Virus record (IMG/VR): IMGVR_UViG_3300048861_000079
Location: 22,932 to 86,931 of that record
Direction: 5' to 3' (one strand)
Length of the DNA: 64,000 nt
DNA from: a virus
Lineage: Duplodnaviria; Caudoviricetes
Numbering within the stretch: position 1 is the first letter of the stretch; each line of letters begins with the position of its first letter. Below, piece after piece: positions 28,654-63,123 of this stretch. Under the pieces are notes generated by a model, which saw only the letters and a list, made by a program, of their open reading frames with translations, was not told where the DNA came from and did no database searches. Position numbers and translations under genes: made by a program.

Positions 28654-30018
28654 GTGTCCGTAGCCGTCGCAGCACCCGAGACCTATGAGGAAGCCGAGTT
28701 CGAGCCCGGCAAGTATGAATTTGACGACGACATGCAGCGCAAGATCGCCAGCATGTTCATGCGCGACACCACGTTCGCGATGCAGACCAAGGATCTGATC
28801 AAGCCGGAATATTTCACCGACACGTCGGTCGGCGCGTTGATCCGGATCGTCCAGGAGCATGTGAAGGTCTACCGATCGGTTCCGGACATGAAGATCCTGC
28901 CGACGATCCTGAAGGATGAGATCGCCGCCAAGCGCATCCGTCCCGACATGATCGACGGCGTGAAGGATATGGTTCGTGACGCCCTGACGGCGGATCTTTC
29001 CAATCCCGAGTTTGTGACCAGCCGCGTAGCCTCTTTCGCCAAGCACCAGGCGATCGAGCAGGCAATCATGAAGTCGGTCGATCTTCTGGAGAAGGGGAAG
29101 TTTGACGAGATCGCCCAGCTTATGAAGGAGGCGAGTTCCGTCGGAGCCGTCTCCGATGGCGGCGACTATAACTATTTCGAAGAGATCGCGAACCGCACCC
29201 AGCAGCGCCACGATATCCTCGCCGGTAAGATCGTCCGCGACGGCATCACGACGGGATATCCCGGAATGGATGCGTTGCTATACCACTATGGCTGGGGCCG
29301 GCGCGAGCTGTCGTGTCTCCTCGGCGCTGCCAAGGCCGGTAAGTCGATGGCGCTTGGCGACTTCGGCAAGAATGCTTCGCTCGCCGGCTACAACGTCTTT
29401 TACGACAGTCTGGAAGTCCACAAGGAGATCATCGCCGCCCGTCTCGACGCGGCACTCGCCGACACCCTGATCAGGGATCTGCACAAGGATCCCGACAAGG
29501 TCCAGGCCGAGATCCTCAAGATGCAGGCGAAGGCCGGGCAGTTCCGGATGCGCGACCATCCTTCCGGCACGCTCAAGCCGTCACAGCTTCACCGTCTCCT
29601 CGAGCAGTATCGCGGCGATGGGCTGATCTTCGATCTCGTGATTGTCGACTATGCCGACATCATGGCTTCCGAATATCGTTCTGACAGCCTGATCGAAAAC
29701 CTGCGCACCATTTATATCGACCTGCGCGCGCTCGCCCACGAGATGAACTGCGCCGTGCTCACTGCAACGCAGACGAACCGTGACGGTGCCAAGGCTCACA
29801 CTGCCAAGGCAACCGACGTCGGCGACGACTGGAATAAGGCGCGAACCGTCGACATTCTGATCGGTATCAATGCCACCGACGCCGAGAAGGCTGCCGGCGA
29901 GGCGCGTCTGACCTGGCTGCTTTCGCGTAACACGGCCGACGGGTTCAGCCTGCGCATCAAGCAGGATCGCGAGAAGATGCAGTTCCTCACCAAGATCATC
30001 GCCAAGGAAGGTCTGTAA
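28654..30018 (+). CDS. dnaB: replicative SF4 helicase (DnaB/gp41-like)
   Basis: GAAKAGKS, SLE, IVDYAD, TATQTNR. Confidence 0.9.
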   Translation: MSVAVAAPETYEEAEFEPGKYEFDDDMQRKIASMFMRDTTFAMQTKDLIKPEYFTDTSVGALIRIVQEHVKVYRSVPDMKILPTILKDEIAAKRIRPDMIDGVKDMVRDALTADLSNPEFVTSRVASFAKHQAIEQAIMKSVDLLEKGKFDEIAQLMKEASSVGAVSDGGDYNYFEEIANRTQQRHDILAGKIVRDGITTGYPGMDALLYHYGWGRRELSCLLGAAKAGKSMALGDFGKNASLAGYNVFYDSLEVHKEIIAARLDAALADTLIRDLHKDPDKVQAEILKMQAKAGQFRMRDHPSGTLKPSQLHRLLEQYRGDGLIFDLVIVDYADIMASEYRSDSLIENLRTIYIDLRALAHEMNCAVLTATQTNRDGAKAHTAKATDVGDDWNKARTVDILIGINATDAEKAAGEARLTWLLSRNTADGFSLRIKQDREKMQFLTKIIAKEGL

Positions 30019-31187
30019 TGAGCCGCTTGTCGATCGCCGATATCAACGCCGAGCTGGATATCGAATATTTCCTCCAGCGTGAGAGCCTGGCCTACCGTGA
30101 GACGCGCGGCGTCTCCGGCACCCAGCTCAACATCAAGTCGTGTCCGAATCCTGTCTGTCGTGACGGCCGCTGGCGCACGTATTTCGGGATCGAGACGGGC
30201 AGGGGAAACTGCTTCGTCTGCTCCAAGAGCTACAACGCCGTCGGCTTTATCCATGACTACTTCGATCACGGCGACAACGATTGGGGTCAGACCTTCCGCG
30301 AATGCGAGGAGATCATGCGTGAGCAGGGCTGGCGGCCCAAGCGCCAGGCGGTCGCGGCGGTAGACCACGGCGACGTCAAGCTCCCTGTATCCGAACCCTT
30401 GCCGCTCGAGACGGGCGAGAATCTCGCCTATCTGGAGACCCGCGGCTTCGGACCCGACATCTGCAAATACTTTAACCTGCGCTGGTGCGAATACGGCTGG
30501 TGGATGTTCAAGACGCCCGAGGGCGAGACAAAGATGCAGAACTTCGGCGACCGCATCATCATCCCGGTTTTCGACCTCGACGGATCCCTAAAGACCTTTC
30601 AGGGACGCGACCTGTTGCCTGGCCTGAGCGAAGAGCAGAAGGCGCTCGGAATGCAGGAGCGCCAGAAGTATCTGTTCCCGATGGAGCTGCCCGGCACGGG
30701 CCGATACCTGCTGAACGGCCAGAACGTGCTGGCGACCGATCATGTGGTCATGGGCGAAGGTGTCTTCGACGTCGCGGCGACCAAGCTCGCCTATGACGAG
30801 GATCCGGCGCTACGTCACATCGTGCCGATCGGATCCTTCGGCAAGCACCTATCCTACGGCAATGCTCAGGGCGATGACCAGCTCGGCCGCTTCATCATCC
30901 TGAGGACGCGCGGCGTGAAGATCATCACCATCATGTGGGATGGCGGCGAGAAGGAGCTGATTGCGGCCCTGAATGCCGCCAAGATGTTGACCGGGATCGG
31001 CTTCACGGTGCGGATCGCGCTTCTGCCGTTTGAGAAGGATCCGAACGAAGTCACGGGTGACGTTGTTCGCAAGGCTCATTACGAGGCGAAGGTCTGGACG
31101 CCAAAGCTCGACATCATGTGGCGCATGAAGAATCCCTACACGCCGGCGCGAAAGGCCAAGGAAGCTGCGCTCGCCGCGGCTGCGTAG
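30018..31187 (+). CDS. dnaG: DNA primase (Zn finger + TOPRIM)
   Basis: CPNPVC...CFVC; GEGVFD; WDGGE. Confidence 0.85.
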   Translation: MSRLSIADINAELDIEYFLQRESLAYRETRGVSGTQLNIKSCPNPVCRDGRWRTYFGIETGRGNCFVCSKSYNAVGFIHDYFDHGDNDWGQTFRECEEIMREQGWRPKRQAVAAVDHGDVKLPVSEPLPLETGENLAYLETRGFGPDICKYFNLRWCEYGWWMFKTPEGETKMQNFGDRIIIPVFDLDGSLKTFQGRDLLPGLSEEQKALGMQERQKYLFPMELPGTGRYLLNGQNVLATDHVVMGEGVFDVAATKLAYDEDPALRHIVPIGSFGKHLSYGNAQGDDQLGRFIILRTRGVKIITIMWDGGEKELIAALNAAKMLTGIGFTVRIALLPFEKDPNEVTGDVVRKAHYEAKVWTPKLDIMWRMKNPYTPARKAKEAALAAAA

Positions 31188-31189
31188 GT

Positions 31190-31209
31190 TTCAGTAAACG
31201 CTGACTTAT
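31190..31209. promoter_or_regulatory. degenerate operator
   Basis: TTCAGTAAACGCTGACTTAT. Confidence 0.45.
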
Positions 31210-31219
31210 CACCTGCGCG

Positions 31220-31243
31220 TTTCCATCGATGATCACGCTATAA
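31220..31243 (+). promoter_or_regulatory. class-II promoter
   Basis: TTTCC-N12-GCTATAA. Confidence 0.55.
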
Positions 31244-31291
31244 CGTAATCAACAGCAATCGAGACGTGAAAGCGCTTCGAAGGAGAATTCA

Positions 31292-31816
31292 ATGTCATAC
31301 CCGATCAAGGTGACGCAGCAGTCCTACGACCATAAGGGCGGCACCAAGTCCTACCATTTCACGATGATCGAAGCTGCCGATGGCCGCTGCGTTGTCGTGT
31401 TTCGCTATGGCAAGAAGGGTCAGTTCGGTCAGCTCATCACTGCGACGTTTGAGACCGCCAAGGCTGCCTGGAAGCATTACGAGGCGAAAGAAAACGAGAA
31501 GCAGAAGGGCGGCTATACGCCCATCGGAACCCAGAGCACGAAGGTCGCAGGGAATCCGACTGAATTGCCCACGACCGTCGGGATCGCGCTTTTCAACAAG
31601 ATCGGCGGCAAGGCCGTCAATCACATCGATACCGGCTACGACACTTCAAAGATGCGCCAGGAAGTCGACGTGCCGACGCTTGATGAGGAAGGCCGCAAGG
31701 TCGGCGACACCAGTCGCAAGGCCGACATCAAGGATCTGCTTGCACAGCAGAAGGCTGCCGAGGAAGAACTCGCCGCCCGCGCTTATGACGACAACGAAGA
31801 ATATGGAATCTTCTGA
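31292..31816 (+). CDS. WGR-like domain protein
   Basis: KSYHF...FRYGKKGQFGQ...A..YEAK.NEK.KGGY matches the WGR layout. Confidence 0.65.
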   Translation: MSYPIKVTQQSYDHKGGTKSYHFTMIEAADGRCVVVFRYGKKGQFGQLITATFETAKAAWKHYEAKENEKQKGGYTPIGTQSTKVAGNPTELPTTVGIALFNKIGGKAVNHIDTGYDTSKMRQEVDVPTLDEEGRKVGDTSRKADIKDLLAQQKAAEEELAARAYDDNEEYGIF

Positions 31817-32337
31817 TGCCCAACCATATGCTGACCCTCGATGACAAGGCGAACCAGTTCGAGTTCGTCTGCCCGATCTTCAATGTCCAGACCAAGATGC
31901 GGCTCTGTATGACGCTGCGCGAATTGTTCTGGATGGGCAAGAAGCCTGACGTTCGCAAAGGCTGCCAGGCGTGCATGCGATCCAGCAAGTGCCCGGCCGC
32001 GGCGATCGTGAACAAGATCAGCTATTCCAGCCAGCGCCCGGCGCCCGACGAATACGGCTCAACTCAGCCTGTCGTCGGCAAGCTGCGCAAGGATATCCTC
32101 GAGCGCATCCTTCTCCCGATCGTGCTCGAGCGAACGATGGATGAATTCGGCGTGCCCGAGCCCGAACGCCAGATGATCCGCACCTCTTCCGACCGCATCG
32201 CAAAGATGGTCGGCGCAGCGCCCATCGACGGCGAAGATCGTCCGGCCACTCGTGCGGCGCCTGCAAAGAAGACCAAGTCCACCGTCAATCGCGCAGCTGC
32301 CGCTTCCGGCGACCTGGCTGCAGCTGTCAACGCCTAA
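31816..32337 (+). CDS. Cys-rich putative Zn-binding protein
   Basis: CPIF...C...CQAC...KC. Confidence 0.65.
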   Translation: MPNHMLTLDDKANQFEFVCPIFNVQTKMRLCMTLRELFWMGKKPDVRKGCQACMRSSKCPAAAIVNKISYSSQRPAPDEYGSTQPVVGKLRKDILERILLPIVLERTMDEFGVPEPERQMIRTSSDRIAKMVGAAPIDGEDRPATRAAPAKKTKSTVNRAAAASGDLAAAVNA

Positions 32338-32348: not shown

Positions 32349-33866
32349 ATGAACGCATACGATGTCGCGCGCCTCATCGAGGATATCGCCGACACCTCAT
32401 CCCGAACGGAGAAGGAGCGCCTGGTCGGACACTTGGCAGCATCCGATCTCGGTCTCTTCGTCATCAAGTGGGCCTATGATCCGTTCATCACCTATGGCGT
32501 GACGGCAGCCCCGACCGAAAGCGCTGAAGGCCGCTTCGAATTCCGTGCCTCGCTTGTCGAGCCGCTGCTCAGGAAGCTGGCGTCCCGCGAACTGACCGGC
32601 ATGGCGGCTGAGCGCGAGATCGGCGAAGTCATGCAGGTGCTCAACAAGGACGGCGCCCGTCTGCTCTTCCTGATCCTGTCGAAGGATCTGAAGTGCGGCA
32701 TTGCCGAGTCCACGATCAACTCTGCAGCACCCGGCACGATCCCGACCTTTGCTGTCCAGCGCGCCATCCCCTATGAGCCGAAGCGCCTCAAGTCCGGCAA
32801 GACCTACAAGGCAGAGTTCAAGCTCGATGGCAATCGCAACACCTTCCTGGCGAAGGATGGCAATGGTGGTTTCTTCACTCGCTCGGGCAAGCGTGTGCCG
32901 GCGCTCGACTTTCTGGTGCCGTCAGTCATCAAGGCTGCAGCCTACGCAGCCCAGGCGGGCTCAGATGCGCTGAAGAAGGTGCTGATCGGCGATCGCCCCG
33001 GTAGTATCTCGAGCCTCAACTTCATGCTCGACGGCGAAGCGATGATGGGTCTGTTCGAAGATACCGGCGCTCTGCGCCGCAAGGATACCGACGCGATCGG
33101 CGCCGAGCTCCATCTCTACGACTTCATGGACTTTCACGATTTCGACGCTCCCGGCGCTGTCGGCGATCCGCTCGCAGCGCGGCGACTTCTGCTCTCCGAG
33201 TTCGTTCAGCTCGCCAAGAAGGCTCTCGCGGACACGCCGTCTCCGAACACGATCCAGATCGTTCCGCAGTTCTTCGTCAACAATGACGACGAGGTCCAGC
33301 AGCTCTTCCAGCGCGCCCGCAGCATGACGCTTGCTGCCTACCTGGCCCGCGGTGACGCCGAAAAGGAAGCGGCCCTGCTCAAGACCACGATCGACAAGGC
33401 GACCGGCAAGCCGAAGGTGCTGGAAGGCATCGTCATCAAGGACATGGACGCGCTTTACGAAAAGCGCAAGTCTGCCGCCTGGATGAAGCTGAAGAACGAG
33501 GAGACCAAGGATCTGCGCGTCACTGGCGCCTATCCGGGCGAGCCCCACACCAAGTATGAAAATGCGATGGGTGGCGCGAACGTCGACCATGAAGGCGTGA
33601 CCGTCAACGTCGGCGGTGGCTGGTCGGACGCGGAGCGCGAGGCACTCTGGGCGATGTATCAGCGCGATCTCGCCCGCGTTGCCGGCTACGATAGCGTGGA
33701 CCTCACGCCGAGCGATTACAAGAGCCTGGGCTGTGAGCTTCTCGGCCGGCTGATCGAGGTCGAATACATGGAAGTCACGCCCGACGGCTCGCTCCGCCAC
33801 CCGCGCTTCGTTCGCTTCCGCGACGACAAGGACGGCGAAGTCGACAACATGGGTCTCGCAGCATGA
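32349..33866 (+). CDS. ATP-dependent DNA ligase
   Basis: EFKLDGNR (KxDG), EGIVIK, WMKLK, SLRHPRF. Confidence 0.9.
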   Translation: MNAYDVARLIEDIADTSSRTEKERLVGHLAASDLGLFVIKWAYDPFITYGVTAAPTESAEGRFEFRASLVEPLLRKLASRELTGMAAEREIGEVMQVLNKDGARLLFLILSKDLKCGIAESTINSAAPGTIPTFAVQRAIPYEPKRLKSGKTYKAEFKLDGNRNTFLAKDGNGGFFTRSGKRVPALDFLVPSVIKAAAYAAQAGSDALKKVLIGDRPGSISSLNFMLDGEAMMGLFEDTGALRRKDTDAIGAELHLYDFMDFHDFDAPGAVGDPLAARRLLLSEFVQLAKKALADTPSPNTIQIVPQFFVNNDDEVQQLFQRARSMTLAAYLARGDAEKEAALLKTTIDKATGKPKVLEGIVIKDMDALYEKRKSAAWMKLKNEETKDLRVTGAYPGEPHTKYENAMGGANVDHEGVTVNVGGGWSDAEREALWAMYQRDLARVAGYDSVDLTPSDYKSLGCELLGRLIEVEYMEVTPDGSLRHPRFVRFRDDKDGEVDNMGLAA

Positions 33867-34426: not shown

Positions 34427-34649
34427 ACTGACCGATGAGGCCGTGGTGAGGGTCAAGAAGGCCCTCATCGACGCGCAGTCCGACAATCCCCGAGTGCGTC
34501 AGGCCGCCATGCTCGAGGTCAAGAAGCTGACCGTTCTCTACGGATCTGACGCGCTTTCCGGAGTGGAAGACGTTCTTGCCGAGGAAGCTTACGAGCGCGG
34601 ACAAGAAGAAGCCTGGGCGATGGGCGGCCCTGGTGTCGTCTGGGACTAG
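34413..34649 (+). CDS. hypothetical protein (78 aa)
   Basis: Coupled to the upstream gene; its stop overlaps the repC stop in CTAG. Confidence 0.55.
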   Translation: MSRAELTDEAVVRVKKALIDAQSDNPRVRQAAMLEVKKLTVLYGSDALSGVEDVLAEEAYERGQEEAWAMGGPGVVWD

Positions 34650-35743: not shown

Positions 35744-35795
35744 GGTATCCCTCTTGTCCGAGGGCAAAGCTTCGCCATTCACCTCAAGAGAAGTG

Positions 35796-35824
35796 TTGAC
35801 AAATCAGCGCTGATTCGGGATAAC
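35796..35824 (+). promoter_or_regulatory. ctRNA promoter
   Basis: TTGACA-N17-GATAAC; the spacer contains palindrome AATCAGCGCTGATT and a GANTC site. Confidence 0.75.
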
Positions 35825-35829
35825 CATCT

Positions 35830-35899
35830 TGCAACGAGGCGATCCGAAGTCGCTGAGATTTACAAAGGCTCCTGATTTGGCGATCAGGGGCCTTTTGCT
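35830..35899 (+). ncRNA. counter-transcribed RNA of the repC replicon
   Basis: Antisense to the repC leader; ends in AAAGGCTCCTGAT-TTGGCG-ATCAGGGGCCTTTT terminator. Confidence 0.75.
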
Positions 35900-35908
35900 T
35901 TGCCGCGT

Positions 35909-36106
35909 TTAGTTTCCTTCAAATACTGCGACCGCGTGCGCGATCAGATCCGAACGGTTCTTGTATTTCCCGGTTGAAACCAGGGCATCGAGCTTTTCTT
36001 GCAATATCCGGTCGAGCCAAACCGTCACCTGGCTCTCACCGGCGGCCTCGCGCTTCTTCCGATAGGTAGCTGCGCGACGTGCATTTCCGTTTTCTTCAAC
36101 ATTCAT
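35909..36106 (-). CDS. ribbon-helix-helix DNA-binding protein
   Basis: QVTVWLD...KLDALV..GKYKNRSDLI..AV. Confidence 0.7.
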   Translation of the reverse strand: MNVEENGNARRAATYRKKREAAGESQVTVWLDRILQEKLDALVSTGKYKNRSDLIAHAVAVFEGN

Positions 36107-39779: not shown

Positions 39780-41039
39780 ATGAGCGAAGCAGCTGAAATG
39801 GCCGTCGCATCCGCGACGGACAACAGGATCGTCTGTCAGATCGACAATGTTCGCGTCCACTTCATCCAGACGCACATCACCAAAAACCATCCCGACTGGA
39901 CCATCGAGCGCTATCAGGCAGAGTTTCCTGGCGCGCCGCTGATGTCCGAGCACGGCAAGTTCCTCTACGAGCGCGAGAAGGCAAGGAAAGCGGCTGCCGC
40001 AAAGACGGCCGAGGCTTCCACGCCCGCGCTTCCGGTTACGACCGCAGCAGCGTCGGCTCCGGCTGTCACCGCAGGCTATATCGGCGGCACGAAGTTCACG
40101 ACCCGCAAGGTTCCGATGTTCGAGCTGTTCGAGCTCGGCGTCACGCCGCCGCCTGCAGCGCTCAACAAGAAGGGCGCACCGATCGCAGTCGACGTGTTCT
40201 CCGGTCACGACGCCGAAAGCCTCAACTACGTGCCCGAGATCGATGACCGCTATGTGTGGAATATCGACCTTCTGAAGAAGGTCATCACCGGCCTGGCGCT
40301 CAACAAGAACGTCCTGCTCTGGGGCTATCACGGCACCGGCAAGACGTCGGTCATCAAGCAGATTTGCGCACGCACCAAGCGTCCGTTCATCCGCAAGCAG
40401 CACACCATCAACATGCAGGAGTCCGATGTCCTGGGACAGTGGACGGTCAAGGATGGCAACACTGTCTTTCAGCTTGGTCCGCTGGCGATGGCGATGATCC
40501 ACGGCTGGGTCTATTGCGCCGACGAATACGACTTCGCAATGCCGTCGGTGCTGGCAGTCTATCAGCCGGTCATGGAAGGCGAGTCGCTGATGATCGCCGA
40601 CGCGCCGCCCGAGTTCCGCAAGATCACGCCGCATCCGGACTTCCGCTTCGTCGCAACCGGCAACACCAACGGCACCGGCGATGAAAGCGGTCTTTACCAG
40701 GGCACGATGATCCAGAACTCGGCCAACTATTCGCGCTTCGGCATCACCGTCGAGGTCGAATATATGGACGCTGCGATCGAGGAGCAGATCCTCATCAGCC
40801 AGACGAAGGTCGACAAGATCTCCGCCGGCAAGATCGTCAAGCTCGCCAACAAGATCCGCGACATGTTCAAGGAAGGCAAGATCTCCACGACGATCTCGCC
40901 GCGTGAAATGATCACGGCCTGCCAGCTCGGCATCGCTTACGGCGCCGAATGGAAGCTCGGCATGGAGCTCGCTTTCTCGAACCGTCTGTCGCGCGTCGAT
41001 AAGAAGGTGTTGGAAGAATACATGGGACGGGCATTCTGA
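39780..41039 (+). CDS. CobS/MoxR-like AAA+ ATPase
   Basis: GYHGTGKT, YCADEYD, VATGN, NYSRF. Confidence 0.9.
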   Translation: MSEAAEMAVASATDNRIVCQIDNVRVHFIQTHITKNHPDWTIERYQAEFPGAPLMSEHGKFLYEREKARKAAAAKTAEASTPALPVTTAAASAPAVTAGYIGGTKFTTRKVPMFELFELGVTPPPAALNKKGAPIAVDVFSGHDAESLNYVPEIDDRYVWNIDLLKKVITGLALNKNVLLWGYHGTGKTSVIKQICARTKRPFIRKQHTINMQESDVLGQWTVKDGNTVFQLGPLAMAMIHGWVYCADEYDFAMPSVLAVYQPVMEGESLMIADAPPEFRKITPHPDFRFVATGNTNGTGDESGLYQGTMIQNSANYSRFGITVEVEYMDAAIEEQILISQTKVDKISAGKIVKLANKIRDMFKEGKISTTISPREMITACQLGIAYGAEWKLGMELAFSNRLSRVDKKVLEEYMGRAF

Positions 41040-41707
41040 TGCAGCAGATCCAGTATCGCAACTACCAGGACTCTGTGAAGCAGATCCATTCCTTCGCCGT
41101 CAAGGTTTTGCGCCGCCTGCACGGGCTCGGCGCAAAGACGCACTCGCTGGACGATGTGAAGCAGGAGCTCGCGATCGCCTGGTGCAAGGCCTGCGAAGCC
41201 TACCGTCCGGAAGGCGGCGCGTCGTTCGAGACGTTCCTCACCAACGGCATGCGCCTGCACATCAACCGCTACATCGAAAAGAATTTCGAGCGGTTCCATG
41301 ACGAGACGATCGCCCTTTCGCTGGAAGGCGGCAGCCGCTCCGACGAGTCCGGCGGCGCAAACATTTCCGGCTCCCTGAGTGAGGTCGTTGCAGATACGGC
41401 GCCGCTGCAGAACGTCGAGGTCGAAAACGAAAACTGCTTTGCCTACGCGCTGACCAGGCTGTCGCCGCGTGCTGCGCAGTTCGTCACGATCCTCAAGGAT
41501 CAGCCGAAGGAGCTCATCGAAGAGGTCCGTCGCCTGGAGGACAAGTCCGAATACGCCAGGGAGCGCGGCATCACTTATGCCACCGCGCACCGTCTCACCA
41601 CGCCCATGATCTTCGATTTCATGGGCGCCTCGCGCAATGAGCGCAAGCAGATCATGGACGAGGTCCAGCAGATCGGCGCGCTCATCCAGAACCAGGTTGC
41701 AGCATGA
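41039..41707 (+). CDS. sigma70 region-2-like transcription factor
   Basis: DDVKQEL..AW.KA.EAYRPE.GASFETFL...MR..I. Confidence 0.7.
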   Translation: MQQIQYRNYQDSVKQIHSFAVKVLRRLHGLGAKTHSLDDVKQELAIAWCKACEAYRPEGGASFETFLTNGMRLHINRYIEKNFERFHDETIALSLEGGSRSDESGGANISGSLSEVVADTAPLQNVEVENENCFAYALTRLSPRAAQFVTILKDQPKELIEEVRRLEDKSEYARERGITYATAHRLTTPMIFDFMGASRNERKQIMDEVQQIGALIQNQVAA

Positions 41708-46333: not shown

Positions 46334-46600
46334 ATGGACAAGATCATCGCATACCTCCGCAAGGTTCTGGGCCTCGAACTGACGATCGACCGCGTTGTCG
46401 CCCGCCAGTCCAAGGTTGTTCGCGACCTCGACAAGCTCGAAACCCTGCACAATGACAAGGCCGACAAGGCTGAAGCAAAGGCCGCCAAGGCCAGCGCGAA
46501 GGCAGAAGCCGCTCGCCTGGAAGCAGCCGACGCCGCTGAGCTCTCCACCAACTGGAAGAATTCTGGACTGGTTCGTCCGCTCCGGAACAACGCGGCTTAA
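46334..46600 (+). CDS. hypothetical coiled-coil protein (88 aa)
   Basis: GAGG RBS, own promoter and operator. Confidence 0.65.
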   Translation: MDKIIAYLRKVLGLELTIDRVVARQSKVVRDLDKLETLHNDKADKAEAKAAKASAKAEAARLEAADAAELSTNWKNSGLVRPLRNNAA

Positions 46601-46622
46601 TCAGCCGCAAGAAAAGTGAGCG

Positions 46623-46646
46623 ATCCCATGATCGGGATCGCTATAC
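46623..46646 (+). promoter_or_regulatory. class-II promoter
   Basis: ATCCC-N12-GCTATAC. Confidence 0.55.
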
Positions 46647-48000: not shown

Positions 48001-48990
48001 ATGTCAAAGAACTACCTCCTGATCGACGGTAATAGCCTCGGTCACTATTACAACAATGGCGCCAAGCTGCACGTTGGCGAGACCCAGGTTCAAGCCATCT
48101 ACGGCTTCCTGCGCGGTTTCCGGCAGCAGGTCGCGCTCTATCAGACCTATTCCCCAATCGTCCTGTGGGACGGCGTCTCGTGGCGCAAGCTGATGTTCCC
48201 GACTTACAAGGAGATCCGCGACCGCGAGGAAACCAAGGCTGAGATCAAGCTTAAGGAAACGAAGGACGCCTACAAGAAGCAGGCGCCGTATATCCGCAAG
48301 GCTCTCGGCTTCCTCGGCATTCCGCAGGTCTCGGCGACGAACATGGAGGCGGACGATCTCGGCGCGATCCTGGTCGACCGCTATTCAGCCCAGGGCGGCA
48401 AGATCGTCATGATCACCGGCGACAAGGACTGGCTGCAGCTGGTTGGCCCGAACGTCGTCTGGAAGGATCCGATCCAGGACCGCCTGGTCAACCTGACCAA
48501 GATGAACAAGGAAGGCACTCGGACGATGTTCGAGGATCTGACCGGCGTCGATGACGTCAAGAAGTTTGTCGAGGTCAAGGCGCTGTGTGGCGACACTGGC
48601 GATAGCGTGCCCGGCGTCGGCGGTGTCGGCCAGAAGGGCGCGGTTGAATTCATCAACCAGTATGGCTCCTTCGCCAACTTCCTGAACATGGCGATCCTCG
48701 AGAAGTCGATCGACCTGAAGAAGCTTCCCAAGAAGCTTCGCAACCTCGTGGAAGATGAGGAAAAGGGAATCATCTTCAAGCGCAACATCGACCTGATGGA
48801 TCTGCGCACGCCGGTTCGGCCGGCACCCCTCAACCTGGTCGTGGACAAGGGCAACCCGTCCTACGAGAAGTTCCACCAGTTCTGCGAACTCCTCCTCTTC
48901 AAGTCCATCACCCAAGAGCTTGCGGATTGGCTCCGCGTGTTCCCCGCTTTCCGCGAACTCGAAACCATCGGCGAGTCCCTCGCCGCGTAA
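48001..48990 (+). CDS. 5'-3' exonuclease/flap endonuclease (T5 D15/T4 RNase H-like)
   Basis: LIDGNS, EADD, GDKD, GDTGDSVPGVGGVG. Confidence 0.9.
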   Translation: MSKNYLLIDGNSLGHYYNNGAKLHVGETQVQAIYGFLRGFRQQVALYQTYSPIVLWDGVSWRKLMFPTYKEIRDREETKAEIKLKETKDAYKKQAPYIRKALGFLGIPQVSATNMEADDLGAILVDRYSAQGGKIVMITGDKDWLQLVGPNVVWKDPIQDRLVNLTKMNKEGTRTMFEDLTGVDDVKKFVEVKALCGDTGDSVPGVGGVGQKGAVEFINQYGSFANFLNMAILEKSIDLKKLPKKLRNLVEDEEKGIIFKRNIDLMDLRTPVRPAPLNLVVDKGNPSYEKFHQFCELLLFKSITQELADWLRVFPAFRELETIGESLAA

Positions 48991-49000: not shown

Positions 49001-50089
49001 ATGAGCAGCGCAGCAGATATCATGAAGGCGCTTGTCGGCGTCATCGGCGACAACGACGAAGAGGCAACGGTTAAGGACTGGCTCGATAGCGGCTTCCCGC
49101 CGTTGAACAACGCCTCGAGCGCCGACTGGAATGGCGCGATCCCTGTCGGTCGCGTGATTGAAGTCGCCGGCCCGCCGTCTGCCGGCAAGACCGCGATCGC
49201 CACCAATGCCGGTGCCATGGCGCAGGCGATGGGCGGCGTGTTCGGCTTCATGGACCATGAACGGTCGTTCTCGTTCCATCTGGCAGAAAAGCTCGGCGTA
49301 GATACGACGCCTGGCCGATTTATCTACAAGAAGCCGAGGACGTTCGAAGAGTCCGTCGCTATCTTCCACCTGACGGTCAAGACGATCCGTGAAAAGAAGC
49401 TGATCGCTCCGGACGCGCCGATTGTGTGGGTCTTCGACAGTCTCGCCGCGATGGTGCCGCAGTCGATCCTGACCGACAGCAAGGGCAAGGAGCGTGAAGC
49501 AACCGATCGCAACATGAACGACAACACGGCGCTTGCCCGCGCGACGTCGGCCCACTTCCCGGCTATCGCCATGATCGCCGAGGAATATAACGTCGCGGTC
49601 ATCTTCTTGAACCAGATCCGCACCAAGATCGGCGTCATGTTCGGCGACCCGCGCAAGACCACCGGAGGCGATAGCCCTGCCTTCTACTTCTCCCAGCGCC
49701 TCTGGCTCTCGGCGTCGAAGATCAACGACAAGAAGACGGGCGAGACGATCGGCATGGAAGTCACCGGCACCTACGTTAAGAATAAGTGTGCCCGTCCGTT
49801 CGCCAAGGCGAAGTGGCGCTTCATGTTCCAGGCTGACGGCACTGGTCGTTTCGACGCCGAGCGCTCGACGGTCGAGTTCCTGAAGGAGCTCAAGCTGCTG
49901 ACCGAGGCCAAGCGCTCCGGCTATTATGTCTTCGAAGGCAAGGAATACACGCTGGAGCAGCTCGCTCGCCACGTCGAGGCGGAAGGCCCCGCTGGCTTTG
50001 CCAAGCTGAAGGCGCTCCTGCCGTCCAAGTATGAGCCGCCGGTTACGGAAGAGTTTCCGATTGACGACGACCTGGCGGATGCTGCCTAG
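49001..50089 (+). CDS. recA: RecA/UvsX recombinase
   Basis: GPPSAGKT, FDSLAA, FLNQIR.KIGVMFGDP..TTGG. Confidence 0.92.
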   Translation: MSSAADIMKALVGVIGDNDEEATVKDWLDSGFPPLNNASSADWNGAIPVGRVIEVAGPPSAGKTAIATNAGAMAQAMGGVFGFMDHERSFSFHLAEKLGVDTTPGRFIYKKPRTFEESVAIFHLTVKTIREKKLIAPDAPIVWVFDSLAAMVPQSILTDSKGKEREATDRNMNDNTALARATSAHFPAIAMIAEEYNVAVIFLNQIRTKIGVMFGDPRKTTGGDSPAFYFSQRLWLSASKINDKKTGETIGMEVTGTYVKNKCARPFAKAKWRFMFQADGTGRFDAERSTVEFLKELKLLTEAKRSGYYVFEGKEYTLEQLARHVEAEGPAGFAKLKALLPSKYEPPVTEEFPIDDDLADAA

Positions 50090-53090: not shown

Positions 53091-53310
53091 GGACTGGCGC
53101 GCACGCGATGAACGGCGCCGGCTGGCCGAAGAGGAACGCGAGCGCCAGAACCAGATCGAGGCGGAAGCGATCGCCGCGAAGGACAGAATGGATCTCGATT
53201 ACCTGATCGACCGCGAATGCAACGACATGGAGGATGTTCGCTACATCCTCCGCCGGCTCGCCAAGGCACAAGCTTTGCAGCTGGATCTCATCAAGAGGAA
53301 TTTGAAGTGA
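53083..53310 (+). CDS. hypothetical protein (75 aa)
   Basis: Translationally coupled on both sides. Confidence 0.6.
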   Translation: MAKDWRARDERRRLAEEERERQNQIEAEAIAAKDRMDLDYLIDRECNDMEDVRYILRRLAKAQALQLDLIKRNLK

Positions 53311-55244
53311 AGTTTCCCGAACTCGAAATTGAAAACTTCCTCGCCTTGACTGAGGCGAAGATCAGCCTGTCCGACCGCGGCCTGGTCCTGATCCAGGGCG
53401 AGAACAACGCCAACACGTCCGCGACGTCGAATGGATCCGGCAAGTCCTCGATCGCCGACGCGCTGTGTTGGTGCTGGTTTGGCACGACGGCGCGCGGTGT
53501 CTCGGGCGACGACGTTGTCAACAATGTCGCCAAGAAGAACACCCGCGTCTCCTCGACGGTCGTTGATGGCGCGATCTCCTACACGGCGACCCGCTACCGG
53601 AAGCACAAGACGGGCAAGAACTCCCTGCAGATCGTCATGAACGACGGCTTCAAGGAAACCGACCTGACCAAGGGCACCGACAAGCTGACCCAGGAGGTTG
53701 CGAACCAGATCATCGGCTGCTCGCTCGAGGTGTTCGCTGGCTCGATCTACGCCGGCCAGGAGAAGATGCCGGACCTGCCGGCGCTGACCGACAAGAACCT
53801 CAAGCTGCTGATCGAGGAAGCTGCCGGCACGACCGTTCTGGAAGGCGCCTATAAGAAGGCGCGCGAGCAGATGACGGCGGCCCAGGCGAAGCTCACCGCT
53901 GCGACGGATATGGTCGAGCGTGCGAAGATCCGGATCGATCACACCCGCAACCAGCGGCTCGCTCTGACCGAACAGATCGACAATTGGGACAAGGCGCGTG
54001 ACGCACGGCGCGAAGCGGTAAAGACGCAGATCGGCGCGATGATCCCTGCCCTCAAGAAGTTGCAGGAAGACATCTCCTTGTTCGACGTGCCGGCGATCGA
54101 AGCCGAGATCGCCGAATGCGATGCCAAGATCGCCGCGGTGGATGCAGAACAGAAGAAGCTCCGCGTGCTGGACATGAAGACGGTCGAGGCGAGCGGTTTT
54201 GTCAACTCCGCGGCGCATCGAATGGCGCTGGTCGAGAAGGAGAAGTCGATCATTGAGAGCGAGCTGGCGCGCATCGATCACAAGGTCGGTTGCCCTTGCT
54301 CCGAGTGCGGCCGGCCGATGACCGAAGCCGAGCTCGGCACTGCCCGTGCCAACGCCCAGGCGCGTTTGGACCTGAAGGCAGAGGAAGTGATGGGTGTTCG
54401 GGCGGACTACGACGCGCTGGTTGACGCACAGAAGCTCGCACAGAGCGTCCGCGATGAATTTGCTGCAACGATGGCTGACATCAGTGCGGTCGCAGCCCAG
54501 CGCGCTGCTCGTGAACGTGAGCTTGCAGGTGTCAACGCTCTGATCTCGCGTCAGGAGTTGACGAAGACGCAGGCGAAGAATCTCCGCGACCAGATCACGA
54601 CGATCACGGCCGAGGTGAACCCGTTCGAAGCGCAGGTGTCGACCGTCGAAGAGCAGCTCCGCACCTTCGAAGACGAGTGCGCCGAGCTGGAGGCGAAGGC
54701 TCTGGCAGCCGAGGGCGAGCTTGCGATCGAACAGGAGGTGGTCAAGGTATTCGCGCCGTCCGGCGTGCGCGCCCACATTCTCGACGAGGTCACGCCGTTC
54801 CTCAATGAGCAGACGGCGAAGTATCTGACGACGCTCTCCGACGGCAACATGGAAGCCACTTGGTCGACGCTGACGCCGGATAGCAAGGGCGTCCTGAAGG
54901 AGAAGTTCACCATCGATGTGACCGACGTCACTGGCGGCGACAAGTTCGAGGCCCTGTCCGGCGGCGAGAAGCGCAAGGCTCGTATCGCAACGGCTCTGGC
55001 GCTGCAGGATCTTGTGGCGACCCGAGCATCGAAGCCGATCGACCTTTTCATCGGTGACGAAATTGACGATGCCCTGGATCCCGCTGGTCTTGAGCGTCTC
55101 ATGCTGATCCTCGAGGACAAGGCGCGCGAGCGCGGCTCCGTCTTCATCATCAGCCATAACGAGCTGCGCGACCATATCCGCCAGGTGATGGTGGTCGAGA
55201 AGCAGGCTGACAAGACGACTCGCATCATGGAGACCACCGCATGA
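53307..55244 (+). CDS. sbcC: SbcC/Rad50 ATPase
   Basis: NGSGKSS, zinc hook CSEC, LSGGEK, FIGDE; GTGA-coupled start. Confidence 0.9.
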   Translation: MKFPELEIENFLALTEAKISLSDRGLVLIQGENNANTSATSNGSGKSSIADALCWCWFGTTARGVSGDDVVNNVAKKNTRVSSTVVDGAISYTATRYRKHKTGKNSLQIVMNDGFKETDLTKGTDKLTQEVANQIIGCSLEVFAGSIYAGQEKMPDLPALTDKNLKLLIEEAAGTTVLEGAYKKAREQMTAAQAKLTAATDMVERAKIRIDHTRNQRLALTEQIDNWDKARDARREAVKTQIGAMIPALKKLQEDISLFDVPAIEAEIAECDAKIAAVDAEQKKLRVLDMKTVEASGFVNSAAHRMALVEKEKSIIESELARIDHKVGCPCSECGRPMTEAELGTARANAQARLDLKAEEVMGVRADYDALVDAQKLAQSVRDEFAATMADISAVAAQRAARERELAGVNALISRQELTKTQAKNLRDQITTITAEVNPFEAQVSTVEEQLRTFEDECAELEAKALAAEGELAIEQEVVKVFAPSGVRAHILDEVTPFLNEQTAKYLTTLSDGNMEATWSTLTPDSKGVLKEKFTIDVTDVTGGDKFEALSGGEKRKARIATALALQDLVATRASKPIDLFIGDEIDDALDPAGLERLMLILEDKARERGSVFIISHNELRDHIRQVMVVEKQADKTTRIMETTA

Positions 55245-55483
55245 ACGAGATCAAGCTCACCCGGAAGGAACGATCGGCGATCGTGAAGATCCTCGAAAAG
55301 CACAACACCTATCCGGCCAACACCTATGGCTTTTGGGCTGGAGCAATCGGCGCCAGCAATGCCGCGGCCGCCCGCAGGATGGAGCACACCGGTCTGATCT
55401 TCATCAATCGCATAGCGGACAATTGTTTCCGCTATGGCCTTACGGACGCTGGCAAGGAACGGGCACGAAAGGAAGCGGCATGA
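55241..55483 (+). CDS. hypothetical winged-helix-like protein (80 aa)
   Basis: ATGA-coupled; ARRMEHTGLI...YGLTDAG. Confidence 0.55.
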   Translation: MNEIKLTRKERSAIVKILEKHNTYPANTYGFWAGAIGASNAAAARRMEHTGLIFINRIADNCFRYGLTDAGKERARKEAA

Positions 55484-56180: not shown

Positions 56181-56660
56181 GTGGTTGTAAAGGGAAAGCG
56201 CCCGATCGTAATCTCGACCGACACCAAGGCGTTCATCGAGGAGTGCGGCAAGGAGATCATCGCAAAGCTGGGCGACCAGTGGTTCGAAGTCGATGGCACG
56301 CCTACCGCGACCGTGAAATACAAGGACGGCACCTTCAAGAAGAAGCCGCTGATCGCCGGCTGGAACTTCAAGCTGGAATATTGCTACGTCGGCCAGCGCG
56401 GCGCTCTGATCTTCGGCCTGACGCCGGAAGACTCCCAGGAATATGAGTTCATCGAAATGGACGCGAAGCAGATGGACACGACCTTTCCGATGGTCGGCCC
56501 CGCGGTGGCTCCCTTGTTCGCCTTGGAAGGCGAGAAGATGCACGTCATCCTCGAAGAGGTCATCGCCAAGCGCATGTCCGAGGAAGCCGAGCGCAAGAAG
56601 GTCGAGAAGGTCCAGGCTGAGACCAACTACGACGACAACGAAGAATATGGAATGTTCTGA
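56181..56660 (+). CDS. hypothetical protein (159 aa)
   Basis: AAGGA RBS, GTG start; ends YDDNEEYGMF. Confidence 0.65.
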   Translation: MVVKGKRPIVISTDTKAFIEECGKEIIAKLGDQWFEVDGTPTATVKYKDGTFKKKPLIAGWNFKLEYCYVGQRGALIFGLTPEDSQEYEFIEMDAKQMDTTFPMVGPAVAPLFALEGEKMHVILEEVIAKRMSEEAERKKVEKVQAETNYDDNEEYGMF

Positions 56661-57238
56661 TGGGTAGAATTCTGATTGCGGGCCTCGACGGCTCGCTGCG
56701 TAACTTCGGCATCGCCACCGCGTGGCTGGATCTGGAGAGCCTCGAGCTGGAGATCAGGGAGCTGACGATTATCAAGACCGCGCCGTCCAAGGACAAGCAG
56801 GTCCGCGCCTCCTCCGACAATCTGGCGCGCGCTATGGAGATCAAGACCGGCGCGCACAATGCGCTGAAGGGCGTCACGACGGCGTTCTACGAAGTGCCGT
56901 CCGGTGGTCAGGACTATCACTCGGTCCTCGGCTTCGGTATCGTCATTGGCACCTATGCCGCCCTGCCGGTGCCGGGCATGGAAGTCTCGCCCTATGAGAC
57001 GAAGTTGGCGGCTCTCGGCACCAAGACGGCGTCGAAGGAAGAGATGATCGAGTGGGCATTTGAGAAGTATCCGAACGCGCCATGGCGCACGAAGAAGCTG
57101 AAGGGTCAGATCCTTCCGACCAAGGATAACGAGCACGTCGCCGATGGCGTGGCGATTATGGAGGCCGGGATCAAGACGCCCTCATTCCAGCAGACGCTTG
57201 CGATCCTCCGGGCAAATACGATGGCTCTCGCAGCCTAA
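56660..57238 (+). CDS. ruvC: RuvC-like Holliday junction resolvase
   Basis: IAGLDGSLRNFG, YEVP, HVADGVAI. Confidence 0.75.
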   Translation: MGRILIAGLDGSLRNFGIATAWLDLESLELEIRELTIIKTAPSKDKQVRASSDNLARAMEIKTGAHNALKGVTTAFYEVPSGGQDYHSVLGFGIVIGTYAALPVPGMEVSPYETKLAALGTKTASKEEMIEWAFEKYPNAPWRTKKLKGQILPTKDNEHVADGVAIMEAGIKTPSFQQTLAILRANTMALAA

Positions 57239-57336: not shown

Positions 57337-58329
57337 ATGCTTTTTGAACGCCAGGTCGAGCGTCTGCCCGATCACTACCCTTGGGCACAAGACTTTATCG
57401 AAGCCATGCAGGAAGGCTTCTGGACCGCCAAGAAGTTCACCTTCGACAGCGATGTCACCGACTACGAGCTCCGCCTGACCGAGGAAGAGCGCCAGGTCGT
57501 CAAGCGCTGTCTTGCGGCGATCGCTCAGATCGAGGTCGCGGTGAAGAAGTTCTGGGCGCGCCTCGGCGACAACCTTCCCCATCCGTCCATCACCGATCTC
57601 GGGATCACGATGGGCTACATCGAGGTCATCCACAACAACGCCTACGAGAAGCTCCTGAAGCGCCTCGGCCTGGTCAACGTGTTCAAGGAGAACATGACCG
57701 TTCCGGCGATCGCCGGTCGCGTCGGCTATCTCAACAAGCACAATGAAAAGGTCTATGGCAACGACCGCAAGCAGTATGTCTACAGCCTGATCCTGTTCAC
57801 GCTGTTTGTGGAGAACGTAAGCCTTTTCAGCCAGTTCTACGTGATCCTGTGGCTGAACCGCTACCACAACGTCTTCAAGGACGCTGCCCAGCAGGTTAAG
57901 TATACCCGCAACGAGGAGCTCCTCCACGCGCAGGCCGGCATCCGCATCATCAACACGCTCCGGAAGGAATATCCGGACCTGTTCGACGCCGAGCTCGAGG
58001 AAAAGATCGTCTCTGAAACCCGTGAGGCTTTCATTGCTGAATGCGCCCTCATCGATTGGATGATCGGTGACTTCGAAAAGATGGGCCACGACGAACAGGG
58101 TAACGAGCGTCCGCTGAACAAGCGGATCCTCAAGACCTACCTCGCCGACCGCTTCAACCAGAGCCTCGAGGCTATCGGCTACGAGCGGCAGTTCCCCGTC
58201 TCCAAGGACGATCTCGCGAAGACCTTCTGGATGACCGAGGGCCTCTACGCCCCGTCCAAGGTCGACTTCTTCCATGGCGAACCGACCGAATACTCGCAGG
58301 CGGATCAGCCTGACGACGACGACTTCTAA
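57337..58329 (+). CDS. nrdB: class I ribonucleotide reductase beta subunit
   Basis: FW, E..H..AY, ENVSLFSQF, RNEELLH, DFF. Confidence 0.9.
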   Translation: MLFERQVERLPDHYPWAQDFIEAMQEGFWTAKKFTFDSDVTDYELRLTEEERQVVKRCLAAIAQIEVAVKKFWARLGDNLPHPSITDLGITMGYIEVIHNNAYEKLLKRLGLVNVFKENMTVPAIAGRVGYLNKHNEKVYGNDRKQYVYSLILFTLFVENVSLFSQFYVILWLNRYHNVFKDAAQQVKYTRNEELLHAQAGIRIINTLRKEYPDLFDAELEEKIVSETREAFIAECALIDWMIGDFEKMGHDEQGNERPLNKRILKTYLADRFNQSLEAIGYERQFPVSKDDLAKTFWMTEGLYAPSKVDFFHGEPTEYSQADQPDDDDF

Positions 58330-60335: not shown

Positions 60336-61211
60336 ATGTCTGGTAAGGAACGCATGTTCGTCAACGTGATCAAGGCGTCGAAGTCGGCCCTTGGCGGTTC
60401 GACGCTGTTCACCGTCCACGCGCGATATCCGCGCATCTTTCATTCGGAGCTGATGACGCACCGCGACTTCAGCCGTAACGCCGGCTCCTCGCGCGCCAAG
60501 CCGATCGCCAAGGTTATCGCCGAGGTCTGGCGCACCCCGTTCGTGCCGTGGCATTGGGGTAAGAACCAGAAGGGAATGCAGGCTGGCGAGGAGATCGGCG
60601 GCTGGAAGCTTAAGGTCGCCCGAGGCGTCTGGGTCGGAATGTCCAAGGTCGCCTGTGTCGCAGCTTACACGCTCGACAAGCTCGGCTTCCATAAGCAGAT
60701 CCCGAATCGCCTTCTTGAGCCCTTCACCTACATCGACGTCCTGATCTCCTCGACCAAGTGGGATAACTTCCTCTGGCTGCGCGATCACAAGGACGCTGAG
60801 CCGCATTTCCAGGATTTGGCGGCGATGTTCCGGGAGGCGCTCGAAAACGCGTCTGTGGAGATCTTGCAGCCCGGCGAGTGGCACCTGCCCTACGTGACGG
60901 TATTCGAGAAGAAGCTTCCGCTGGCGACCCAGCAGATGCTCTCGGTCGCTCGCTGCGCCCGCATCTCCTATCAGCCGTTCGATGGTGACGCTTCGATCGA
61001 AAAGGAGATCCAGCGCTACAACCTGCTGGTCGGATCTACGCCGCTCCATGCCTCGCCGGCCGAGCACCAGGCCACGCCGGATGGCAAGGCTCCTATCGGC
61101 CTCACCGACGTCTGGGATTGGGAGCACCCCGAGCTTTCCGGCAACTTCGACGCTGGCTGGATCCAGTATCGCAAGACGCTTCCCGGCGAAGTCTATCGCC
61201 AGGCCGCATGA
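60336..61211 (+). CDS. thyX: flavin-dependent thymidylate synthase
   Basis: HSELMTHRDFSRNAGSSRA; phage-type HKQIPNRLLEP and LHASPAEHQA. Confidence 0.8.
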   Translation: MSGKERMFVNVIKASKSALGGSTLFTVHARYPRIFHSELMTHRDFSRNAGSSRAKPIAKVIAEVWRTPFVPWHWGKNQKGMQAGEEIGGWKLKVARGVWVGMSKVACVAAYTLDKLGFHKQIPNRLLEPFTYIDVLISSTKWDNFLWLRDHKDAEPHFQDLAAMFREALENASVEILQPGEWHLPYVTVFEKKLPLATQQMLSVARCARISYQPFDGDASIEKEIQRYNLLVGSTPLHASPAEHQATPDGKAPIGLTDVWDWEHPELSGNFDAGWIQYRKTLPGEVYRQAA

Positions 61212-62551: not shown

Positions 62552-62569
62552 ATTCGCGAATGAATTTGT

Positions 62570-62595
62570 GCATCCCAAGTCAAGCGCTGCTATAA
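62570..62595 (+). promoter_or_regulatory. class-II promoter
   Basis: GCATCCC-N12-GCTATAA. Confidence 0.65.
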
Positions 62596-62602
62596 AGAAA
62601 CT

Positions 62603-62622
62603 ATAAGTAAGCACATACTGAC
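62603..62622. promoter_or_regulatory. 20-bp operator
   Basis: ATAAGTAAGCACATACTGAC. Confidence 0.65.
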
Positions 62623-62633
62623 AGCGAGGCGAC

Positions 62634-62717
62634 ATGAAGAATTGTTTCGGACACTTCATCGTCGCCTCCGCCTACCTCTTTGTCATCGCTATGTGCCTCT
62701 ACCCGTTTTCAAAGTGA
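62634..62717 (+). CDS. small hydrophobic peptide (27 aa), not in the ORF track
   Basis: MKNCFGHFIVASAYLFVIAMCLYPFSK; GAGG RBS; first ORF after a promoter. Confidence 0.45.
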   Translation: MKNCFGHFIVASAYLFVIAMCLYPFSK

Positions 62718-62724
62718 GGAAAGA

Positions 62725-63123
62725 ATGAAGACCGAGACCGCCCATCAGGAAGAGACCATCGCATCGGTGCGCGCTGATCTGCAGCTGCGCCAGGATGCCG
62801 CCGTCGAGGCCAGTCGCATTGCTTGCAAGCGCAAGCTTTTGGAAGCTCTTGTCCACGCCGGCCGTGAGGCTGAGACCCACTTTCAGGCCGCCAAGGCCCG
62901 CAAGAAGCTTCTCAAGGGCGTGCTGAACGACCTGGAGCAACTCGACGGCGAAGACGATCTCGAGATCAAGGAACTTCAGGATCTTTTGGTTAAGACGCGC
63001 GATGCGATCGACGGCACTGTTTCGACCGCTGTTCTCGCCTTCGCCGCTACGCCGGCAGAAACGCCGGCAGAAACGCCGGCAGAACCGCCGTTCGCTCTGT
63101 CGCCGGCCCGGTTCGCCGCCTAA
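62725..63123 (+). CDS. hypothetical coiled-coil protein (132 aa) with TPAE x3 repeat
   Basis: GAGGA RBS; 12-bp tandem repeat near 63049-63084. Confidence 0.65.
   Translation: MKTETAHQEETIASVRADLQLRQDAAVEASRIACKRKLLEALVHAGREAETHFQAAKARKKLLKGVLNDLEQLDGEDDLEIKELQDLLVKTRDAIDGTVSTAVLAFAATPAETPAETPAEPPFALSPARFAA

Follow-up and report, generated by a model that had tools for sequence, protein, structure and literature searches.

In Caulobacter, a C-terminal Ala-Ala is described as a common degron of the protease ClpXP, and its exchange for Asp-Asp stabilises the protein CdnL (PMC11034885). In Sinorhizobium meliloti, changes in the last three residues of CtrA raise the CtrA level (PMC4433202). Here we analyse a 64,000-nucleotide stretch of viral DNA, hereafter the window, which covers positions 22932-86931 of the 86.9-kb IMG/VR contig IMGVR_UViG_3300048861_000079 (contig completeness estimate 74%) and in whose right arm ten non-virion proteins end in Ala-Ala (AA). 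A sequence-only reading of the window had taken these endings as tags by which a phage submits its replication and recombination enzymes to host proteolysis. Our comparisons indicate that the AA end is a feature of non-virion proteins held by protein-level selection, and AA ends go with alphaproteobacterial hosts.

Terminal Ala-Ala in the right arm

The window shares synteny with the Rhizobium siphophages V1VFA-S, B1VFA, RHph_X66, RHph_N1_15 and RHEph10, which measure 115-122 kb. Its left arm consists of virion and lysis genes. The right arm encodes, in this order, PhoH, DnaB helicase, primase, a WGR protein and ligase; a divergent module of RepC and a ribbon-helix-helix protein, CobT- and CobS-like proteins, a sigma-like protein and DnaE; an SSB-like protein, a 5'-3' exonuclease, RecA, SbcD and SbcC; and a RuvC-fold resolvase, ribonucleotide reductase (RNR), glutaredoxin, a ThyX-like protein and dUTPase. 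C-termini were read with our own codon-usage gene caller, and the stop positions are independent of the gene model. These independent calls reproduced all ten AA ends at the coordinates claimed for them. The ten genes and the contrast set are as follows.

30018..31187, + strand: primase-like protein, ending ...LAAAA, stop TAG; weak Pfam DNAG_N match, relatives annotated as DNA primase
32349..33866, + strand: ATP-dependent DNA ligase, ending ...GLAA, GCA-TGA/ATG overlap; Pfam DNA_ligase_A_M and OB domain
41039..41707, + strand: Sigma-70 region 2 protein, ending ...QVAA, TGA overlap; Pfam Sigma70_r2
46334..46600, + strand: 88-aa protein with no assigned function, ending ...NNAA, stop TAA; no Pfam match
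48001..48990, + strand: 5'-3' exonuclease (FEN-type), ending ...SLAA, stop TAA; Pfam 5_3_exonuc_N and 5_3_exonuc
49001..50089, + strand: RecA-family recombinase, ending ...ADAA, stop TAG; Pfam RecA
55241..55483, + strand: 80-aa protein with no assigned function, ending ...KEAA, TGA overlap; no Pfam match
56660..57238, + strand: RuvC-fold Holliday-junction resolvase, ending ...ALAA, stop TAA; no Pfam match, AlphaFold pLDDT 93.5, Foldseek E = 1.5e-8 to RuvC
60336..61211, + strand: ThyX-like protein, ending ...RQAA, TGA overlap; named from annotated orthologues
62725..63123, + strand: 132-aa protein with no assigned function, ending ...RFAA, stop TAA; no Pfam match
282..26892, + strand: virion and lysis block (contrast set), 0 of 27 genes AA-ended in our own calls

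Two of the names given earlier are best read with care. The RuvC label is supported at the level of the fold, by AlphaFold and Foldseek, and has no Pfam match. The ThyX label has neither a Pfam nor a PDB sequence match and rests on orthologues annotated as FAD-dependent thymidylate synthase.

AA ends were found on 10 of 39 right-arm and 0 of 30 left-arm proteins (Fisher p = 0.0036). The sequence-only reading had counted 10 of about 44 against none of about 28. Its division of the ends by stop codon proved right: six are followed by TAA or TAG, and the four GCA-TGA cases overlap the next ATG (ATGA). Start/stop overlap was rejected as a general cause, since it concerns only four of the ten ends and dictates the last codon alone. 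Adding the packaging genes that immediately precede the window left the virion block free of AA ends (0/31), and the virion blocks pooled from three related genomes had a single AA end among 83 genes, compared with 44 among all 332 other genes (Fisher p = 6e-4). The 23 kb that precede the window in the contig contribute five further AA ends, including that of an SF2 helicase, for a contig total of 15 of 103 genes.

The frequency of alanine is 0.28 at position -1 and 0.25 at position -2, compared with 0.08-0.16 at positions -3 to -10. Because alanine is raised at the last two positions only, this is a terminal dipeptide effect and not an Ala-rich tail, and Ala-rich tails were rejected as the cause for all ends except that of the primase. 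The residues at -3 in the ten tails of the window are A, L, V, N, L, D, E, L, Q and F.

The size of the enrichment depends on the baseline. Measured against the internal AA dipeptide frequency of the genome (1.8%), the excess in the right arm has a binomial p of 1.4e-9. The C-termini of the host itself are a fairer chance baseline, and we took 400 kb each of Ancylobacter rudongensis and Faunimonas pinastri (Hyphomicrobiales), whose assemblies contain related full-length phage contigs of 109-114 kb. AA is the commonest terminal dipeptide in both samples (19/360 and 30/367; pooled 49/727 = 6.7%), and the right arm still exceeds this level (p = 1.9e-4), being at 26% about fourfold higher (odds ratio 4.8, p = 4e-4). 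Whole related phage genomes have 9.6-14.6% AA ends, about 1.7 times the host level (p = 0.02). Set against the host proteomes, the excess persists (26% vs 6.7%), but it is smaller than first appears.

Four chromosomes of non-alphaproteobacterial Pseudomonadota, sampled at 100 kb each, had AA ends on 7 of 354 proteins (2.0%), and the two of these samples with 64-68% GC and 13-14% alanine had 3 of 176. With 6.7% in the hosts and 2.0% elsewhere, AA ends are thus a trait of these alphaproteobacterial proteomes. Our literature search found no published proteome-wide count of AA ends and nothing specific on AA tails of alphaproteobacterial phage proteins. The difference between the two Hyphomicrobiales and other Pseudomonadota, also at equal GC and alanine content, merits a proper census.

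This baseline bears on the main rival explanation, in which Ala-Ala at free C-termini is a non-proteolytic preference of alphaproteobacteria as a whole, perhaps acting through termination or peptide-release efficiency or through tail composition, and the phage would copy and exaggerate it where its C-termini are unconstrained. We regard this as possible and somewhat doubtful. The excess of the hosts over non-alphaproteobacteria, two samples of which are equally rich in GC and alanine, speaks for it, as does the modest excess of whole phage genomes over their hosts. It is also favoured by ribosomal proteins: L17, L15 and S3 (and also L10 in one genome) are AA-ended in Ancylobacter and Faunimonas, with differing residues at -3/-4. 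Overall, the ribosomal proteins of both hosts have AA ends at about the baseline rate (3/33 and 4/47), which does not distinguish a degron from a termination optimum. However, S3 is AA-ended in 0 of 28 other alphaproteobacteria sampled, and in a control of five ribosomal-protein families across 29 alphaproteobacteria only 4 of 140 ends were AA, whereas phage families reach 62-100%. The near absence of AA from the virion genes, the most strongly expressed late genes, speaks against a termination optimum.

Conservation among relatives and across host classes

We collected 32 related loci from IMG/VR and public phage records and read the ends of the orthologues. Relatives keep six of the ten ends: RecA in 16 of 16 orthologues, ligase in 16 of 17, the 5'-3' exonuclease in 16 of 17 (down to 36% identity), the RuvC-like protein in 11 of 11, the 88-aa protein in 4 of 4 (all ...RKAA) and the ThyX-like protein in 2 of 2. 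The primase (1/15, the closest orthologues ending ...AAAAKE) and the sigma-like protein (1/20) do not follow this pattern, and the 80-aa protein at 55241-55483 and the 132-aa protein at 62725-63123 had no orthologues among the loci sampled. By this comparison the primase end is lineage-specific. CobS-like orthologues are AA-ended in 3 of 18 cases. Two further families have AA ends in relatives while the window copies end otherwise.

31816..32337, + strand: 173-aa protein ending ...VNA in the window; orthologues mostly AA-ended (12/17, ...NAA or ...AAA)
53307..55244, + strand: SbcC-like SMC/AAA ATPase ending ...TTA in the window; about half of the orthologues AA-ended (6/13), all 13 ending in Ala

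The window copy of the first looks like an AA loss.

The two alanines are constrained far more than the residues around them. For the families of ligase, exonuclease, RecA and the RuvC-like protein, the columns at -1/-2 have an entropy of 0-0.3 bits, compared with 1.4-3.1 bits at -3 to -10. The tails share one layout, a conserved anchor followed by 5-14 unrelated residues and then AA, and the length from anchor to AA varies by up to 13 residues. In ligase, an RFRDDKDGE anchor and a variable stretch precede AA, with one longer tail ending ...KEAAVAAAA. The RuvC-like tail extends 13-26 residues past an F.Q[TV] anchor and is very variable at -3, and the acidic RecA tail, which differs in length, terminates in AA. 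All four Ala codons occur at the two positions, followed by all three stops, in 23 codon/stop combinations.

This use of every codon and stop argues against an mRNA-level signal, and so does the lack of any terminator-like hairpin on the + strand over the AA codons; both points count against a termination-linked preference. A terminator hairpin or other mRNA signal over the AA codons was rejected on the same grounds.

A wider sample of cluster representatives gave AA ends on 78 of 120 RecA proteins (at least 61% identity, mostly EAA or DAA), 91 of 120 RuvC-like proteins and 74 of 120 SF2 helicases. Among distant exonuclease representatives (33-58% identity, Ala content 8%), 26 of 142 end in AA, by far the commonest end. 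Trees from which the tails had been left out require at least 15 (RuvC-like), 30 (RecA) and 24 (SF2) changes of the AA state, compared with 26, 35 and 37 for shuffled labels on the same trees. A state that is so labile and yet stays at 62-76% requires a strong pull towards AA. The frequency of these changes also counts in favour of a general terminal preference. Concerted loss across genes was rejected: four phages with an AA-less RecA keep AA on the exonuclease and the RuvC-like protein. Thus, the AA state evolves gene by gene.

These trees also bear on another explanation, that a few AA ends arose once by chance and were inherited. The sampled orthologues are indeed related, the primase and sigma-like ends are lineage-specific, and the primase end lies within an Ala-rich tail. 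However, the flanking tail residues have diverged to near-random, AA is retained at 62-76% through at least 15-30 changes of state per family, gammaproteobacterial relatives at equal divergence have no AA, and unrelated phages have the same excess. Chance with shared ancestry is already contradicted by the tail divergence, the host-class contrast and the changes on the trees, and we consider it scarcely credible.

To compare host classes, the syntenic non-virion arms of related elements were counted with one gene caller; their Ala content is 9-12% in all. AA ends occur on 18 of 67 proteins in Methylobacterium pAMS5a (alpha) and 10 of 39 in the right arm of the window (nearest relatives from alphaproteobacteria). 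The Cupriavidus plasmid (beta) has 5 of 48. None was found in Aeromonas pKAM330_1 (0/56), Pseudomonas phage nickie (0/44) or Stenotrophomonas phage BUCTxx99 (0/43), all from gammaproteobacteria (pooled 0/143; alpha vs gamma, p = 4e-12). The gammaproteobacterial orthologues of ligase, exonuclease, RecA, SbcC and RuvC are AA-ended in 0 of 9 cases, and their similarity to the window proteins matches that of the remotest AA-ended alphaproteobacterial orthologues. Exonuclease orthologues of gamma- and betaproteobacteria end without AA. The ThyX-like orthologue is AA-ended in Methylobacterium and not in Cupriavidus, while the SbcC-like orthologues of both are AA-ended (IAA and HAA, respectively).

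Two unrelated phages with alphaproteobacterial hosts have AA ends as well. Phage 16-3 has 11 among 82 proteins, ten of them outside the structural genes, and a non-structural 50-kb stretch of phiCbK has 8 among 73, including a ligase. What is new here is the alpha-gamma contrast inside a single syntenic family of phage-plasmids, together with measured host baselines.

A candidate degron and its alternatives

One possible explanation is that the terminal Ala-Ala is an encoded, ssrA-like C-terminal degron (ClpX C-motif 1) that is read by ClpXP. This is our preferred reading, and on the sequence evidence we give it a probability of about 0.45. The AA-ended proteins would then probably be built to be degraded, and we infer that ClpXP or another AAA+ protease would read the ends and shorten the half-lives.

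Several observations are consistent with this degron reading. Ancylobacter rudongensis and Faunimonas pinastri, which carry related phages, encode clpX above the curated cut-off. The alpha-type tmRNA tags of these two genomes are ANDNYAPVAQAA and ANDNYAPVAVAA, ending AQAA and AVAA, and tails of the window include GLAA, SLAA, ALAA and QVAA. RuvC-like orthologues often end in AQAA, and the PVAQAA end in V1VFA-S and RHph_X66 is identical to the final six residues of the ssrA tag of Ancylobacter. AlphaFold models the RecA tail (residues 338-355) without secondary structure, with pLDDT of 56 and then 47, and the variable tail lengths suggest loose tails. The background on which the sequence-only reading had drawn, Ala-Ala as an alphaproteobacterial ClpXP degron, matches the published work (PMC11034885, PMC4433202) and the host ssrA tags.

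The plasmid state invoked by that reading is reasonable too. RepC lies at 34646-35743 on the - strand with RP-C and RP-C_C domains (E = 3e-37), adjoined by the ribbon-helix-helix gene, so that a plasmid initiator, a virion block and a DnaE/DnaB/primase replisome stand on one contig, the gene content of a phage-plasmid. Relatives are recorded as circular plasmids of 115-119 kb in Rhizobium beringeri, Sinorhizobium sp. LM21, Shinella, Pararhizobium and Methylobacterium; the extrachromosomal state is seen in these relatives. B1VFA and V1VFA-S have been proposed as prophage-plasmids (PMC12509600).

Other evidence weighs against a degron. The host baseline of 6.7% is high and includes the stable, abundant ribosomal proteins L17, L15 and S3, so AA alone is insufficient for instability in these bacteria. 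The primase and the sigma-like protein do not retain AA in relatives. The RuvC-like tail is modelled by AlphaFold as a continued helix, with pLDDT of about 81 falling only to about 70. In E. coli the terminal Ala-Ala is required but does not suffice by itself, and a polar residue or Gly/Ser immediately ahead of it makes the tag weaker (PMC10862746). Glu is found most often at -3 in 45 AA-ended proteins from three related phage genomes (11/45; EAA in RecA as well as ligase), and a non-polar residue stands there in no more than about half of the window tails. This rule is taken from E. coli and the rule of alphaproteobacterial ClpX may differ, the host tags having Q or V at -3. ClpXP of E. coli, a gammaproteobacterium, reads Ala-Ala too, yet the gammaproteobacterial relatives have none in 143 proteins; the benefit therefore cannot be general. 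A Pfam scan of 30 right-arm proteins found no Clp, SspB or adaptor-like domain.

Together, the interpretation given by the sequence-only reading gains from the selected AA on non-virion proteins, the match to host ssrA tags, the presence of ClpX and the plasmid state, and loses from the high host baseline and from conservation in only six of ten cases. Nothing favours ClpXP over another protease as the reader. The proposed "ClpXP-timed replication programme", including a shut-off before packaging, goes beyond the evidence.

We then propose a model for how such a degron could work. The degron would be carried on the free tails of the ligase, the 5'-3' exonuclease, RecA, the RuvC-fold resolvase, the ThyX-like protein and several small proteins. 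Host ClpX, possibly with alphaproteobacterial adaptors, would bind the free Ala-Ala-COOH, unfold the protein and feed it to ClpP. The level of the DNA-cutting and DNA-joining enzymes would then track transcription closely and stay low during RepC-driven plasmid life, while virion proteins, which must last, would be made without AA.

If ClpXP does read these tails, a phage-plasmid family writes protein lifetimes into its nuclease, recombinase, ligase and nucleotide-enzyme genes, and does so in one host class only. This would add to phage gene regulation a simple layer that can be read from the sequence and that annotation pipelines overlook, and it would offer a natural set of weak to strong degrons for alphaproteobacteria. 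It would further hint at the means by which a phage-plasmid holds down dangerous lytic enzymes while it lives as a plasmid. Cultured members (V1VFA-S, B1VFA, RHph_X66 and RHEph10) and genetically tractable hosts make this question open to direct testing.

The same tails have been weighed under another function. Ala-Ala-COOH might be a docking peptide for a shared partner, either an alpha-only host protein or a phage hub, that gathers the recombination and replication enzymes. The proteins that keep AA are functionally linked DNA enzymes, and the phage has other conserved C-terminal peptides, ...EYG(I/M)F on two proteins and an acidic ...DDDDF on the small RNR subunit, so that it does make use of docking tags at C-termini. 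However, two alanines offer very little binding energy or specificity, residues -3 to -6 vary within and between families, and the ending also occurs on unrelated small proteins, in phages 16-3 and phiCbK and on 6.7% of host proteins. The scan of 30 right-arm proteins yielded no candidate for a reader domain, and we consider docking improbable.

The tails could also act as decoys: they would bind ClpX, and abundant AA-ended early proteins would saturate ClpXP and thereby stabilise substrates such as CtrA. This idea draws on the same resemblance of the tails to ClpX degrons. ClpXP is central to the alphaproteobacterial cell cycle, and blocked CtrA proteolysis is lethal in S. meliloti (PMC4433202); a pay-off specific to the host class would fit the AA-free gammaproteobacterial relatives. 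The argument is, however, entirely indirect, one abundant protein would titrate ClpXP better than a dozen enzymes, and the enzymes would still be degraded, which makes decoys compatible with the degron reading. On its own we hold this explanation to be very unlikely.

It is tempting to extend the degron reading to the host, although we think the extension unlikely. Ala-Ala-COOH would be a proteome-wide conditional stability code of alphaproteobacteria, executed by adaptor-primed ClpXP and taken over by phages. The tagged lytic replication and recombination enzymes would be cleared in step with the host cell cycle during RepC plasmid life, or, in the reverse version, a burst of AA-ended early proteins would saturate ClpXP, stabilise CtrA and freeze the cell cycle. 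Either version would explain the AA-free gammaproteobacterial relatives, whose hosts lack that adaptor-driven cell-cycle circuit.

Other features of the element and known ClpXP substrates

The arm from PhoH, DnaB, primase and ligase to DnaE, exonuclease, RecA and SbcCD carries RepC in alphaproteobacterial elements (Methylobacterium pAMS5a; window 34646-36106). At the place of RepC in the syntenic arm, the Cupriavidus plasmid has TrfA and a MipZ-like ATPase, and Aeromonas pKAM330_1, typed IncP, has a ParA gene. Across this one superfamily of phage-plasmids, the replicon has been exchanged according to host class. A protein of the GcrA family (PF07750), a cell-cycle regulator of alphaproteobacteria, is encoded beside the resolvase region of a related phage contig (L072:18844-19347), with no counterpart seen in the window. 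The sole tRNA of the window, tRNA-Thr (GGT) at 63661-63734, lies inside a region that had been described earlier as a large non-coding RNA. A perfect palindrome with a 10-bp stem (46619-46642) lies 19 bases past the stop of the 88-aa AA-ended gene and is terminator-like on the - strand only.

The SF2 (ResIII/DEAD) helicase upstream of the window (contig 12209-13792, - strand) ends ...ADNDNFPWHEFDAQKVAA, and 74 of 120 homologues are AA-ended. Several of the homologues are about 876 aa long, with the intein/homing-endonuclease domains PF05203, PF05204 and PF14528. An SspB-binding head (ANDN...) before AA had a sole candidate, ADNDNF in this helicase, which was rejected as the family motif (D/N)FPW.

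Other conserved C-terminal tags are present in the same phage. Two otherwise different proteins, at 31292-31816 and 56181-56660 and one of them with a WGR domain, end ...EEYGIF and ...EEYGMF, and their orthologues retain an (L/N/I)(Y/F)G(R/A/M)F end, a second and separate tag. The small RNR subunit (57337-58329) ends ...PDDDDF, with ...DD(D/E/N)F in orthologues, an example of a conserved tag other than AA; presumably this is the usual acidic-aromatic tail that binds the large subunit. Many distant 5'-3' exonuclease representatives end in Pro-Phe plus two residues (PFRK, PFKR, PFAA, PFQK and others). This suggests a conserved C-terminal docking peptide of phage FEN-type nucleases, sometimes combined with AA.

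Compared with known systems, the endings reported here share with the ssrA tag and natural ClpX C-motif-1 degrons (...LAA-COOH) a free Ala-Ala-COOH on a C-terminal tail. Unlike the ssrA tag, they are encoded in the genes and not added by trans-translation, and many are acidic or polar at -3 (EAA, DAA, NAA), a feature that makes the E. coli tag weaker (PMC10862746). With the alphaproteobacterial ClpXP substrates CtrA and CdnL, the phage proteins have the host class and the terminal dipeptide in common. CtrA and CdnL, however, are single host regulators that were tested experimentally and often depend on an adaptor and a second determinant, whereas here an enzyme class of a mobile element is concerned, as judged by sequence comparison. 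In E. coli, the phage proteins lambda O, Mu repressor variants, MuA and P1 Phd are ClpXP substrates whose levels are set by host ClpXP, through signals that vary from N-terminal in lambda O to RRKKAI-like in MuA. To our knowledge, none of these represents an Ala-Ala ending that is conserved genome-wide and limited to a single host class. The likeness lies in the principle: like lambda O and MuA, the phage replication and recombination proteins described here would come under the control of host ClpXP.

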